This document shows positions 7,126 to 48,157 of a stretch of 64,000 nt of DNA, one piece after another. Numbering within the stretch: position 1 is the stretch's first letter; each line of letters starts with the position of its first letter. Source of the stretch: Alphaproteobacteria bacterium (lineage in GTDB: Bacteria; Pseudomonadota; Alphaproteobacteria; Rs-D84; SZUA-605); assembly GCA_031549385.1 (NCBI GenBank), contig JAVBPW010000005.1, positions 1 through 64,000 on the forward strand, written 5' to 3'. The notes beneath the pieces were generated by a model. The model saw nothing but the letters and a program-made list of their open reading frames with translations. It did not search any database and had not been told where the DNA came from. The translations under genes and the position numbers were made by a program.

Positions 7126-8433
7126 ATGAGTGATTTTTTTGACCTTATTGATGAAAAGAAGGAAAGTGCATATGAACCTCTTTCTTCTAAGCTTAGACCT
7201 AAAACTTTAGATGAAGTTTTGGGGCAAAATCATCTTTTGAAAGATACTGGAGTTATTGGGTCTTCTTTGAAAAATAAGAAAATTCCATCCCTTATATTTT
7301 GGGGACCTGCTGGGGTTGGAAAAACTACTATATCTTTATTATTAGCTGAGGCTATTGGGGCTGACTTTAGGCAGATATCTGCAGTTTTTGCAGGTGTTGC
7401 TGATATGAAAAAGATTTTTGAAGAAGCTAAATATCTTCGACAAAATGGAAAGCCTTTTATTCTTTTTGTAGATGAAATTCACAGGTTTAATAAAGCTCAA
7501 CAGGATTGTTTATTGCCTGTGGTTGAGCGAGGTGATGTTATTTTAATTGGAGCTACTACTGAAAATCCTTCTTTTGAACTTAATTCAGCGTTGCTTTCAA
7601 GATGCAGGGTTTGTGTACTTAATTCGTTAAAAAAAGAAGATCTTTATAACATAATTGAGCGAGCAGAAAAGTTTGTAGGCAAAAAGTTACTTATAGATGA
7701 AGAAGCAAAAGAAGCTTTGGTTTCTATGGTTGATGGAGATTGTCGTTATCTTATTAACATGCTTGAAACTCTTTTTGATTGTGCAGAAAAAACTTTGAAT
7801 ACTCAGGAAATGATGGATTTGATTACTCAAAGAGCTAGTATTTCTGACAAAACTGGAGATACACATTATAATTTAATTTCTGCTTTGCATAAATCACTTC
7901 GTGGAAGCGATGAAAATGCTGCACTTTATTGGGGTTTTAGAATGGTGGAAGCAGGGCAGGATATGAGCTATATTTTTAGGAGAATTTTAAGATTTGCTTC
8001 TGAAGATGTTGGGAATGCTGATCCACAAGCTGTTCCTCTTGTTTTGTCTTGTTGGCAATCTTATGACAGAATTGGAAGTCCAGAAGGGGATATTTTCTTG
8101 GCTCAATCTTTAGTTTATTTGGCTTTGGCGCCTAAATCTAATGCTACTTATGTGGCTCAAAATGTTGTTAAGGAATTTGTTAGAAAATATGGGTCGCTTA
8201 TGCCGCCTAAGAATATTCTTAATGCACCTACTACTTTAATGAAAAATTTAGACTATGGTAAGGGATACAATTATGACCATGATGTAGAAGGTGGTTTTTC
8301 TGGGGATAATTATTTTCCTGATGAAATAAAAAATAGACCCGTCTTTTATAATCCCGTTGAACGTGGGTTTGAAAGAGAGTTGAAGAAAAGAAAAGATTAT
8401 TTTGATAATATAAGAAAGTCTAAAAAAAAATAA
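7126..8433 (+). CDS. rarA: Replication-associated recombination protein A (AAA+)
   Basis: LRPKTLDEVLGQ, GPAGVGKTT, FVDEIHRFNKAQQD, GATTENPSF, ISALHKSLRGSD. Confidence 0.96.
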   Translation: MSDFFDLIDEKKESAYEPLSSKLRPKTLDEVLGQNHLLKDTGVIGSSLKNKKIPSLIFWGPAGVGKTTISLLLAEAIGADFRQISAVFAGVADMKKIFEEAKYLRQNGKPFILFVDEIHRFNKAQQDCLLPVVERGDVILIGATTENPSFELNSALLSRCRVCVLNSLKKEDLYNIIERAEKFVGKKLLIDEEAKEALVSMVDGDCRYLINMLETLFDCAEKTLNTQEMMDLITQRASISDKTGDTHYNLISALHKSLRGSDENAALYWGFRMVEAGQDMSYIFRRILRFASEDVGNADPQAVPLVLSCWQSYDRIGSPEGDIFLAQSLVYLALAPKSNATYVAQNVVKEFVRKYGSLMPPKNILNAPTTLMKNLDYGKGYNYDHDVEGGFSGDNYFPDEIKNRPVFYNPVERGFERELKKRKDYFDNIRKSKKK

Positions 8434-8471
8434 AATTTGACATTTGGTTTTTGTTTAGGTAGTTTAATCTT

Positions 8472-8668
8472 AGTTTTAAGGTTATATTTATTAGTTCTTT
8501 GACATGTGGGTCTGTAAATTGTTAAATACATAAACTGGTGATTTCACTGGTGGCGAAACGAGCCTCAACATTAGAATGGAGTCCCCTCTAGTAGCTTAAG
8601 ATGGTATTTAGCTGCAAAGTTTACAGGAAAACCAAAATTACTGGCTGCTCGAAAGAGTGGCCTTTTTT
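8472..8668 (+). ncRNA. Candidate structured non-coding RNA of unknown family
   Basis: Promoter TTGACA(8437)-N17-TAGTTT(8460); long closing helix 8512-8529/8604-8626 enclosing three small hairpins; terminator 8643-8668. Confidence 0.55.
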
Positions 8669-8748
8669 AATAAATTATGAAAATAATTGACAAAAGCTAA
8701 TTAATTTTTTAATGTTATTGATTATATCACCTTTAAAAATTAAACAAT

Positions 8749-8868
8749 ATGGAATGGATTGTTAGTGAACAAGCAGGATTAATAGTTGCTGCAGCTATTG
8801 GAGTAGTATTTTTGGCTATTTTGTTTTGGCGGGCTTGGGTTAAAAGTAAGCCTCATAAAACAAAATAA
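8749..8868 (+). CDS. 39-aa single-pass membrane peptide (not in ORF track)
   Basis: MEWIVSEQAGLIVAAAIGVVFLAILFWRAWVKSKPHKTK; own TTGACA at 8687 and terminator 8896-8922. Confidence 0.65.
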   Translation: MEWIVSEQAGLIVAAAIGVVFLAILFWRAWVKSKPHKTK

Positions 8869-9012
8869 ACAAAAAATACAGAATTTTTATATATTTAGCT
8901 CATCTTTTGATGGGCTATTTTTGTATTTTTAAAGATAAATGTTGACAAATTAATAGAAGTAAGCTATTTATTAGTGTAAGTATGAATTGTTAAATCTTAA
9001 AAAATTAAAAAT

Positions 9013-9549
9013 ATGAAAATCTGTTATATGGTTTATTATAAAGAACAGAAAATAATGATTTCTGTTGCTAAAGTACTGTTAGTAATTGGGCTGGTAGCAG
9101 TTTTCCCGCTGACGATATTTTACATTTTGGGAGGTGGCCGAATTCGGTTTGAATTTAATAAAATTAAACCAGCTAAAATGGACTGCGGAATTCTTGATGC
9201 AGAAAATGTGTATCAAGAGGAGTTGAAAAACGTTGAAATCGTTTCCTATGAACAGATTGATAATGACCATTATTATTTAATCTTAAAAAATGGAGATAAA
9301 ATAATAATGTGCATGAAACAAACTTTTAGGGTTAAGCCGGAAACAGTTATTGAGTATGTGAAGTATCAAAAACTTTTGAAGTGGGATATAAACTATGCCG
9401 AGTTTGCCGAGCAGAAAGTTTTAACTCAGATACTTTTGCATATTGAAATAGAAAAGTTTTCAACAGTTGAAAAAAAGAAAGTTGGAGGTAAAACTGTGGT
9501 TCGCCGCAAAACCTATGACAAAAAATATTTTAAACAGAGTGGCTCTTAG
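9013..9549 (+). CDS. Orphan protein with N-terminal TM segment (cassette)
   Basis: 178-aa ORF; TTGACA at 8942; stop codon lies in the loop of hairpin 9536-9561. Confidence 0.7.
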   Translation: MKICYMVYYKEQKIMISVAKVLLVIGLVAVFPLTIFYILGGGRIRFEFNKIKPAKMDCGILDAENVYQEELKNVEIVSYEQIDNDHYYLILKNGDKIIMCMKQTFRVKPETVIEYVKYQKLLKWDINYAEFAEQKVLTQILLHIEIEKFSTVEKKKVGGKTVVRRKTYDKKYFKQSGS

Positions 9550-9569
9550 CCACTCTTTTTTGTTTTAGA

Positions 9570-9770
9570 GATTTGTATGCGATATTCGTTGAAGATTTGA
9601 AAAATGCGATGTCCTCAGTCCTTTGGACTTGCGGGCTCCTTATTTGTATGCGATGTACTTTCAGAAGATTTATTAAATCTTCTGATCCGTTGTCTTCGTG
9701 ACAAAGCAAAGCTTTTACTACGACGGCGAACTGCCTCGTAAGAACTTCGGGTTATAAATTGTATAACTTT
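9570..9770. repeat. Cluster of short palindromic (REP-like) hairpins downstream of tRNA-Ser
   Basis: ATTTGTATGCGAT twice (9571, 9642); hairpin TCAGAAGATTTA/TAAATCTTCTGA; CTTCG...CTACG-type hairpins. Confidence 0.45.
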
Positions 9771-9809
9771 CGTTATCAAAAAAACGTCTGAAATCAGACG
9801 TTTTTATGA

Positions 9810-13682: not shown

Positions 13683-13813
13683 ATTGGGGCGCATTGAAAA
13701 TGTGCTGCAAACAAAAAGAGTTTAAAGTTTACTTCACAATCACGTATGTTTAATACGCTCATGCGAAGATGACTTTAAACTTTTTTGCTTTCGCTACATT
13801 TTGAATGGCCGAT
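13683..13813. repeat. Palindromic intergenic element, copy 1
   Basis: Long imperfect inverted repeat; 32-nt core 13732-13763 identical to 22291-22322. Confidence 0.85.
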
Positions 13814-13913: not shown

Positions 13914-14312
13914 ATGAATGCTGTTGAATATTATAATCAGCAAAAGGAAAAATTTATTTCAGAAAAAATAAGTGAGGGTTTGAATCTTGCCAAAACTTGG
14001 GAAGAGACACCCGTAATGACAAAAATTTCTATGTTGCAAGCTTTTGAGAAACAACTCCCGTTTATGAGTGGGTTTGTTCATGCTTACAAACATGAAAAGT
14101 TGTTTGGTGATGCTCCATTTAGCGGAATTATGGATGTTTATATATCTATGATGCTTTGGAATGATCATGACGCTAGTAATCCTATGTTTGAATTCAAACG
14201 GGGGTTTGCATTTATGTTCTTTTTGAAAGACATGATTAGTAAAAAGGAATTGACTGATATTAGTTATGTCTATCGGGACATGGTTAAATATTATTCGGAA
14301 TTAAAACCTTAA
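13914..14312 (+). CDS. Orphan protein (cassette)
   Basis: 132-aa ORF after the conserved leader; no recognised domain. Confidence 0.75.
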   Translation: MNAVEYYNQQKEKFISEKISEGLNLAKTWEETPVMTKISMLQAFEKQLPFMSGFVHAYKHEKLFGDAPFSGIMDVYISMMLWNDHDASNPMFEFKRGFAFMFFLKDMISKKELTDISYVYRDMVKYYSELKP

Positions 14313-14323
14313 AAATAGTAAAC

Positions 14324-14626
14324 ATGAATAAAAATTTTAATCCTGAAAATGTAAAAGAAAAGCTTCCTGAAATCATGGAAGAAATTCTGAAATGGCGTAC
14401 ATTGAACAACGAAGAAAAAAAGGAGTATATCAAAGAAGCTAAGGATGATTGTCCTTGTTTATTTGGCGGTGTCCTTGTTGGAATATCTATTGCAGCTGCG
14501 GTACTTTCAGATAATGAAATATCGAAGAAAAAAAGAGCTACGCTCTTGGCGGCAATGAAAGATATTGCAAAATTCGAGGAAGAAATGTATCGAAAAGAAA
14601 CTTTGTTAAGCTCGAAAGAGCTTTAA
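14324..14626 (+). CDS. Orphan protein (second gene of cassette)
   Basis: 100-aa ORF; degenerate motif AACCTTAAAAAT at 14305; terminator 14651-14676. Confidence 0.72.
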   Translation: MNKNFNPENVKEKLPEIMEEILKWRTLNNEEKKEYIKEAKDDCPCLFGGVLVGISIAAAVLSDNEISKKKRATLLAAMKDIAKFEEEMYRKETLLSSKEL

Positions 14627-14678
14627 TAAGGATGAAGTGTAAATTGATTTGGATGACTGAAAGGTCATCCTTTTTTAT

Positions 14679-14747
14679 TTGACAGAATTAATATGAGATA
14701 GTAAGTTATGTTTTATAACCTATTGTATAAACTTAAAAAATCACACA
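14679..14747 (+). promoter_or_regulatory. Cassette promoter/leader module
   Basis: TTGACA-N17-TAAGTT-N21-AAACTTAAAAAATCAC-ACA-ATG. Confidence 0.75.
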
Positions 14748-15260
14748 ATGGAAGAAAAAATACAGAATATTAAAAAATATGCTGAAAGCATTATTCCTCA
14801 ATTTTTAGAAGGATGGGGAAGATTTAGTATTTCAGAGAAAAGGCAATTTTTTAATACGATTCATGTTATGAATTCATTTGAAATTTGGCTTTTAGGGTTC
14901 TTCTCTGTGGACGGATTGTCTGCTAGAGAACAAAGTAAAATTAAAACGTGTTGGAAAGAGCTTTATAAAACAGAGAAAAATCCAGTAAGTCTTCGTGATG
15001 ATATGTTTGTGATTTCAAAGAAAATCCTTAATATGCATGTCGATTTTGTATTTGCTAATTCAACCTTAGAAGAAAGGAAAAAGAATTACAAAAATTTGAG
15101 TGAATCTGATATGTATATATCATATTTCTTTGGATTTGCTGTTGGTCTTTTTCCTGAAGAAGAAAAAAAGAAATTACTTCTTGGTTTCAAAGAGGTTTTT
15201 ATCTTGGCCACTTCAGTAGAGAATATGAATAAAATTTTATATTCTGTATTGCTTGGATAG
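14748..15260 (+). CDS. Orphan protein (cassette)
   Basis: 170-aa ORF between terminators 14651-14676 and 15267-15292. Confidence 0.75.
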   Translation: MEEKIQNIKKYAESIIPQFLEGWGRFSISEKRQFFNTIHVMNSFEIWLLGFFSVDGLSAREQSKIKTCWKELYKTEKNPVSLRDDMFVISKKILNMHVDFVFANSTLEERKKNYKNLSESDMYISYFFGFAVGLFPEEEKKKLLLGFKEVFILATSVENMNKILYSVLLG

Positions 15261-47886: not shown

Positions 47887-47906
47887 TGTTCTCTCCTTTT
47901 ATAAGC

Positions 47907-47990
47907 GCCAGAAGGTGACCCACTTGAATTCTATATGACTGCTTTCTTTCGAATCTGATCTGGTTACAAAACCTTATGCCCACCTCTGGC
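47907..47990 (-). ncRNA. ffs: Signal recognition particle RNA (4.5S), minimal
   Basis: Reverse complement has terminal stem GCCAGAGGTG/CACCTTCTGGC and helix-8 motif AACCAGATCAGATTCGAAAGAAAGCAG with a GNRA loop. Confidence 0.85.
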
Positions 47991-48157
47991 TTTTTGATGA
48001 TAGTACACTAATTAAAAAAGGTAAAGAAAATTTTTCTTGACTTAGTGGTCATTTTACATATTATCCCCGCGGACCACTTTAACCTAACAAAAAAGTACTT
48101 CCATTTTTATTTTAAATATGATAAAATTATTAGGCTAAATTAATAAAGGATGAAATT

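Follow-up and report, generated by a model that had tools for sequence, protein, structure and literature searches.

The gap between rarA and a tRNA-Ser gene in this alphaproteobacterial genome holds a single-copy unit that runs from a promoter to an intrinsic terminator with no credible open reading frame (ORF) between them (Table 1). We read this unit tentatively, with a probability of about 0.45, as a lineage-specific, orphan, single-copy small-RNA (sRNA) gene; its transcription, its drawn fold and any regulation by its RNA are what we infer.

The unit was analysed within a window of 64,000 nt, the whole stretch of DNA under study, which corresponds to positions 1-64000 of contig C2. The genome comprises 931 kb (0.93 Mb) in 8 contigs and is 97% complete, and the DNA run that contains the stretch is labelled as an invertebrate gut metagenome. 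A single rRNA operon is present, on C6, together with a two-piece tmRNA of the alphaproteobacterial form (RF01849, 166.8 bits) and a bacterial type-A RNase P RNA (205 bits). The SRP RNA, at 47903-47991 on the minus strand of the window, scores 33.9 bits, which is under the gathering score of 40 set by Rfam, and would therefore be overlooked by standard annotation. Neither hfq nor proQ was found in this 97%-complete genome.

Table 1. Features of the unit downstream of rarA and of its neighbours (window coordinates)
Feature	Position	Strand	Description
rarA/mgsA	7126-8433	+	Pfam MgsA_C (1.9e-60) and AAA domains; no terminator of its own before P1
Promoter P1 (predicted)	8437-8465	+	-35 TTGACA 8437-8442, 17-nt spacer, -10 TAGTTT 8460-8465
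GTTCTTTGACA, boxA-like motif and putative P2	8494-8527	+	Motif at 8494-8504; second TTGACA at 8499-8504
9-codon ATG frame	8504-8533	+	MWVCKLLNT plus stop; ATG 39 nt after the -10
Core domain (predicted)	8511-8627	+	Two outer stems enclosing three hairpins; minimum free energy (MFE) fold
Outer stem 1 (predicted)	8512-8519 / 8619-8626	+	CTGTAAAT / GTTTACAG; 8 pairs, 1 G-U
Outer stem 2 (predicted)	8521-8529 / 8604-8612	+	GTTAAATAC / GTATTTAGC; 9 pairs, 1 G-U
Hairpin ACTGGTG/CACTGGT	8534-8551	+	From the sequence
Hairpin GGC-GAAACGA-GCC	8552-8564	+	From the sequence
Hairpin TGGAG-TCCC-CTCTA	8577-8590	+	From the sequence
Intrinsic terminator	8643-8668	+	GGCTGCTC-GAAA-GAGTGGCC at 8643-8662, 8-bp stem, then T6; terminator scan
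Cassette 2	8687-8925	+	TTGACA-N17-TAATGT, 39-aa membrane-type ORF 8749-8868, terminator 8896-8917
Cassette 3	8943-9565	+	TTGACA promoter at 8943, 178-aa ORFan 9013-9549 with hydrophobic N-terminus, terminator

Promoter P1 and the promoter grammar of the genome

P1 is not returned by a generic promoter scan, because TAGTTT shares just 3 of 6 positions with TATAAT, and a promoter grammar was therefore derived from the genome itself. TTGACA is 1.7-fold enriched in intergenic DNA (139 observed versus 82 expected from composition) and 2.6-fold depleted inside genes (210 observed versus 542 expected). The six positions that lie 17 nt past the intergenic copies (n=139) read T 78, A 86, w, w, T 77, T 92. 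The resulting genome consensus is TTGACA-N17-T-A-w-w-T-T, which the TAGTTT of P1 fits: agreement is exact in the -35, the spacing and the -10 bases T1, A2, T5 and T6. Among the 78 intergenic TTGACA-N16-18-TAnnnT sites, 46 stand 20-65 nt ahead of an ATG that opens an ORF of 80 aa or more, in a gene set made of our own crude ORF calls, so the motif predicts real promoters; from base composition, about 12 of the 78 are estimated to be chance matches.

The exact pair TTGACA-N17-TAGTTT occurs at 8437, 13845 and 30426 of the window, a recurrence already seen in the earlier note, and at the latter two positions it heads gene cassettes. When up to one mismatch is allowed, the window contains 6 sites versus 1.41 expected, a number reached in none of 100 shuffles. 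Examples of the grammar in the window stand at 8437, 8687, 13845, 14679, 16348, 30426 and 49354. The call of P1 is reasonably secure as a promoter predicted from sequence, and its start, placed by the usual 7-nt distance and not mapped, would lie at ~8472. By prediction, the unit thus has the promoter of its own that an independent sRNA gene should possess.

The ORFan cassette genes at 13914-15260 follow the second TTGACA-N17-TAGTTT promoter. Exact RNA-library contigs cover 13963-14633 and 14735-15209 and are the deepest of the organism's pieces there; such contigs are no proof, and they hint at expression of these ORFan genes. At 13683-13787, several contigs of the DNA run end or branch and variant letters occur at 13723-13745, which fits a copy of a dispersed hairpin repeat family.

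Terminator, separation from rarA and coding potential

The strong terminator GGCTGCTC-GAAA-GAGTGGCC-T6 described in the earlier note was recovered by the terminator scan. It is the first terminator past rarA, whose stop ends at 8433, whereupon the -35 of P1 begins at 8437; no terminator lies between the two, and the distance from stop to terminator is ~229 nt. For 190 of the 919 called genes, a terminator follows the stop by no more than 355 nt; its median distance is 40 nt, and in 149 of the 190 it lies within 60 nt. Measured against this median of 40 nt, the ~229 nt past rarA make the intervening DNA look like a separate unit. The spacing favours a putative inserted unit whose terminator would also serve rarA.

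No plus-strand ORF of at least 30 aa is listed inside 8437-8668, in keeping with what had been noted before, and the frames are broken by stops. Each of the three forward frames contains 3-4 stops over ~66 codons, which we estimate to be about the density of random sequence of the same base composition. The ATG frames on the plus strand comprise 9, 7 and 29 codons only, the longest running through the terminator. The stretch is closed by a terminator and free of a credible coding frame from the promoter onwards, as expected of an independent sRNA gene. Two frames were considered as genes and found unconvincing, a 44-aa frame on the minus strand (8397-8531) and the 29-aa frame that crosses the terminator. 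The ATG of the 9-codon frame lies at a distance from the -10 that matches the starts of the genome's cassette genes; from base composition, chance alone is estimated to place an ATG in that range about 4 times in 10, and the frame could be a relic or a chance frame. Read-through translations of the unit have no protein-level paralogue in the genome.

The base composition of the unit stands above that of its surroundings, as first noticed from the sequence, with a GC content of 0.41-0.43 at 8500-8650 versus 0.18-0.27 in the flanks. Since 13% of the intergenic 100-nt windows of the genome have a GC content of at least 0.40, the GC island counts as moderate evidence only.

Predicted fold and the boxA-like motif

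The pairings and the three hairpins drawn in the earlier note exist, and the MFE fold reproduces the stems. Over its whole length the RNA is no more stable than its shuffled versions (z -1.26, matched by 22 of 200), and the core at 8511-8627 is modestly unusual (MFE -31 kcal/mol; z -2.29, matched by 4 of 200). The minus strand gives z 0.07 and a version of the RNA starting at 8534 gives z -1.56. The four-way junction proposed earlier is a thermodynamic prediction only.

The element GTTCTTTGACA had been likened to the boxA antitermination element of rRNA leaders. The motif is present at 8494-8504, and GUUCUUUGACA resembles the boxA consensus, but neither the genome's own rRNA leader and spacer nor the leaders of its relatives support the comparison. 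GTTCTTTGACA occurs once in the genome and TTCTTTGACA 4 times, none of them in the rRNA operon, and the rRNA leader and 16S-23S spacer of the genome lack this motif. In the 16S leaders of 7 relatives (1 of 9 loci lacked an anchor), the conserved elements are different ones: a GATGTG...CACAT stem and, within one family, also a TGTTTTTTAACA motif. The unit shares with rrn-type boxA leaders a U-rich CUUUGACA-type motif early in the transcript, followed by terminators. It differs from them in that the host leader and spacer lack the motif and in that the motif here contains a -35 hexamer and may be a second promoter. Downstream of this second TTGACA stands TTAAAT at a spacing of N17, or TAAATA at N18, and a repeat search found that TTGACATGTGG repeats TTGACATTTGG of P1. 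The second TTGACA may belong to a weaker promoter, P2, that would yield an RNA of ~135 nt; for GTTCTTTGACA, we consider a boxA no more likely than a weaker tandem promoter.

Downstream cassettes and the surrounding island

The unit does head a run of three, as the earlier note had proposed, with two promoter-ORF-terminator cassettes behind it that both have consensus promoters of their own. The promoter of cassette 2 (8687) begins 19 nt beyond the T-run of the terminator, and its ATG lies 33 nt after the -10. The encoded 39-aa peptide is hydrophobic with a basic tail, a type I toxin-like shape; a search of 100 relatives gave one weak match (E 0.098) and no convincing homologue. The 178-aa ORFan of cassette 3 has no Pfam match and no counterpart in any of the 100 relatives, and it found only itself among the protein clusters searched. 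With a promoter in front of the downstream ORF, the RNA is not needed as its leader; together with the absence of an Rfam aptamer match, this sets the unit apart from a riboswitch or cis-acting leader.

Because the RNA unit, the 39-aa ORF and the 178-aa ORF all lack convincing homologues, the block from rarA to the 3' side of tRNA-Ser(GCU), 8434-9800, is an ORFan island. At 9560-9800, a GC-richer non-coding stretch beside tRNA-Ser contains two copies of TTTGTATGCGAT (~9571 and ~9642) that resemble part of the T-arm region of tRNA-Ser, GGGTATGCGATTCG at ~9818; these copies may be remnants of recombination at tRNA-Ser. Outside the window, a GC island at C2:66626-66796 of the same genome carries an ARAGORN tRNA with undetermined anticodon beside a tRNA with a CUA anticodon (amber-suppressor-type).

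Searches for known families and homologues

At gathering thresholds, Rfam 15 returned two tRNAs only in the window and no match for the unit. Nothing better than E = 1.2 was found at 8300-8800, where the best-scoring match, sroB, reaches 20.5 bits against a gathering score of 44 and mainly covers the terminator hairpin. The earlier failure to recognise a family is thereby borne out at the level of covariance models; an uncatalogued RNA here means one without an Rfam 15 match, nothing more. The unit belongs to none of the genome's dispersed hairpin repeat families, and no second copy exists in the genome. Derivation from tRNA-Ser was considered and set aside: 11 of 500 shuffles attain the local score of 29 that the unit has against tRNA-Ser(GCU), scores of 27-28 are obtained with other tRNAs and with antisense strands, and no tRNA model matches.

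6S RNA (RF00013) gave no match at E <= 10 in the genome and was absent from the Rfam matches at 8300-8800, and in 60 relatives of the order none reaches the cut-off (1 of 60 has a match, E 0.063). With no detectable 6S RNA in the genome, the unit was considered as a diverged 6S. The two have a similar length and ends predicted to pair, and there is no other 6S candidate. They differ in that the unit has no model match, is unconserved in relatives and is predicted to branch, whereas 6S RNA forms a rod that contains a bubble. The MFE and centroid structures and the suboptimal ones that were sampled are all multi-branched with a one-sided 5' bulge instead of a two-sided bubble, and this fold, combined with the lack of conservation in the order, argues against 6S.

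The homologue search suggested in the earlier note came back empty. BLASTN against 60 relatives yielded one 35-nt match (E 0.008), judged to be chance, and BLASTN against phage and plasmid collections yielded no match. A covariance model built from the single sequence and its MFE structure (173 positions, 50 pairs; self-score 220.8 bits) detected no homologue: its best score among 100 relatives was 21 bits (E 0.2), and it returned nothing from the 5 nearest genomes under lax filters or from 150 genomes of the class, 250 genomes in all. A 20-mer scan of a genome collection returned one chance match, in an Amycolatopsis genome. The available relatives are distant: their RarA proteins are at most 60% identical, metagenome rarA loci (n=26) at most 56%, and gene order past rarA is not conserved across 29 relatives' loci. 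At such distances, one would not expect to find an sRNA homologue, and the lack of one does not argue against function.

Comparable units elsewhere in the genome

At 16 promoter sites genome-wide, a terminator intervenes between the site and the next ORF of 80 aa or more. Fifteen were examined, C7:353868 being dropped as an internal TTGACA of the unit at 353737. These comprise 7 small-protein cassettes (39-79 aa), 1 tRNA-Val and 7 units without a convincing ORF, the present one included; with other such promoter-to-terminator units in the genome, the architecture recurs. None of the 5 other ORF-less units submitted to Rfam matched a family. Some of these are far more stable, with fold z-scores of -5.7, -4.6, -3.1 and -2.8 versus -1.26 for the RNA next to rarA.

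ORF-less units without an Rfam match lie at C4:12635-12860, C4:17897-18050, C7:382532-382760, C7:52506-52330 (minus strand) and C1:55919-55750 (minus strand), and three of these have z -5.7, -4.6 and -2.8. A further unit outside the window, C7:353737-353930, combines a promoter, a GC hairpin (GGGGTCC-ACG-GGGACCC), TTCTTTGACAAAAC and a strong terminator, and stands immediately ahead of tRNA-Trp and secE. It has no Rfam match and has the look of either a leader in the boxB/boxA style or a small RNA.

Expression and candidate targets

RNA-library contigs of run X2, which belongs to the same study as the DNA run, match neighbouring genes exactly, and none falls on 8005-8671; such contigs cannot show small RNAs. 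The independent RNA of roughly 200 nt claimed in the earlier note is best read as the predicted product of a terminator-ended, non-coding transcription unit.

Stand-alone trans-acting sRNA genes combine a sigma-70 promoter with an intrinsic terminator, and Hfq-independent ones occur in reduced genomes, for example in Rickettsia. The unit resembles such genes in being monocistronic and ~200 nt long, in having its own promoter, a terminal stem-loop with U-tail and no ORF, and in occupying an intergenic gap beside core genes in a narrow lineage. It differs in lacking homologues and a target above chance and in its host genome, which has no Hfq or ProQ gene. The missing hfq and proQ genes led us to reject Hfq dependence.

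The apical segment of the RNA pairs with the ribosome-binding site and start codon of rpsU (28 pairs, -31.2 kcal/mol), the best of 919 start regions. Three segments were tried, and 2 of 55 dinucleotide shuffles do as well; 34 of ~124,000 genome windows score equal or better, ~25 distinct loci once the RNA's own antisense is left out. The pairing is within chance and rpsU was rejected as a target. A strong Shine-Dalgarno sequence confined to rpsU, as in Flavobacteria, was likewise rejected, with a core Shine-Dalgarno in 456 of 919 genes and rpsU ranking ~29th. The bS21/rpsU system of Flavobacterium is the subject of PMC9976891 and PMC7797042.

A type I toxin-antitoxin arrangement was examined through the duplex of the RNA with the 39-aa mRNA, which reaches -26.4 kcal/mol at best, with an 11-bp helix inside the coding region; hundreds of genome windows fall in that range. 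No long inverted repeat linking the unit and the 39-aa cassette was found. The hairpin loop UCCC, in GGAG-UCCC-CUCU, is C-rich like those of the cuckoo RNA or CCUCCUCCC-motif family, alphaproteobacterial sRNAs with C-rich loops (PMC4615179). The unit differs from this family in that CCUCCUCCC is absent, only a single such loop is present and there is no Rfam match. By analogy, the UCCC loop could pair with G-rich ribosome-binding sites.

Alternative readings

The unit might be the relic of a small-protein cassette that formerly encoded a peptide of ~45-55 aa and has since decayed, perhaps still transcribed but without function at the RNA level. Seven cassettes of the genome for proteins of 39-79 aa have a like layout, with 139-276 nt from -10 to terminator and ATGs 19-44 nt after the -10, and here an ATG stands at +39 in a frame that closes after 9 codons; the whole block from rarA to tRNA-Ser is moreover ORFan and fast-evolving, and the unit has neither conservation nor a strong fold. 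We nevertheless regard such decay as rather doubtful, with 3-4 stops in all three frames at about random density and no residual frame visible, no protein-level paralogue in the genome, and an intact consensus -35, a fitting -10 and a terminator, which an old relic would not be expected to retain in a genome of 0.93 Mb. Clearly less likely still is that the stretch represents the 3' untranslated region and terminator of rarA, with TTGACA-N17-TAGTTT a chance site and the hairpins incidental. The lack of a terminator between the stop at 8433 and 8643, the share of chance sites among promoter-like matches (an estimated ~12 of 78) and the whole-RNA z of -1.26 would all suit an untranslated region, but a distance of ~229 nt from stop to terminator is atypical when 149 of 190 genes have theirs within 60 nt, P1 fits the lineage consensus in its -35, spacing, T1, A2, T5 and T6, and the identical hexamer pair heads two gene cassettes of the window.

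A cis-acting leader, in which the boxA-type element at 8494-8504 would load Nus factors for read-through of 8643-8668 and of the terminators of the next two cassettes, or in which the 9-codon frame would serve as an attenuator, is improbable. The resemblance of GUUCUUUGACA to the boxA consensus, the overlap of the 9-codon frame with the 5' strands of the outer stems, and the second unit at C7:353737-353930 with its promoter, GC hairpin, UUCUUUGACAAAAC and terminator just before tRNA-Trp and secE speak for it, and that second unit keeps the antitermination idea alive at low probability. Against it stand the rRNA leader and 16S-23S spacer without the motif, the other elements conserved in the leaders of 7 relatives, and the consensus promoters of both downstream cassettes; inspection revealed no sequence able to form an antiterminator with either arm of the terminator, and an attenuator would have to work with a leader frame that contains a single Trp codon only. 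We also give little credence to the 117-nt four-way-junction core as a novel structured-RNA class, such as a scaffold for protein binding or catalysis, that would be specific to these small-genome gut alphaproteobacteria, would head an ORFan island inserted next to tRNA-Ser(GCU) and would work with the 39-aa membrane peptide and the 178-aa ORFan. The least probable of these readings is that the unit belongs, in highly diverged form, to a known family of housekeeping or regulatory RNAs, chiefly 6S RNA. No 6S RNA is detectable in the genome by RF00013, RNase P RNA, SRP RNA and the two-piece tmRNA are accounted for at other loci, and the length and the predicted pairing of both ends are compatible with 6S. 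Yet the predicted fold is multi-branched and, where 6S RNA would have a two-sided central bubble, shows a 28-nt bulge on one side; conservation would be expected of a housekeeping RNA, but the covariance model finds nothing in 100 relatives, and Rfam offers nothing better than E = 1.2 in the region.

Proposed mechanism and significance

Under the reading as an sRNA gene, RNA polymerase with the housekeeping sigma factor would start at P1, at ~8472, with a possible further start at ~8535 from the second TTGACA promoter. A non-coding RNA of ~197 nt (or ~135 nt) would be transcribed up to the intrinsic terminator at 8668, and read-through from rarA would end at the same 8643-8668 terminator. The RNA would carry a modestly stable multi-branch core and the C-rich UCCC hairpin loop, and would most likely act in trans without Hfq, by base pairing or protein binding.

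The unit is ordinary in kind, and a putative sRNA gene is a reasonable annotation of it rather than a discovery. The more useful by-product is the promoter grammar, TTGACA-N17-TAwwTT with start codons 20-65 nt downstream, from which transcription units can be predicted genome-wide. If transcribed and functional, the RNA would be among the very few regulatory RNAs of uncultured gut alphaproteobacteria with genomes below 1 Mb and without Hfq or ProQ, and it would mark an island of ORFan mini-cassettes that may mediate host or niche interactions.
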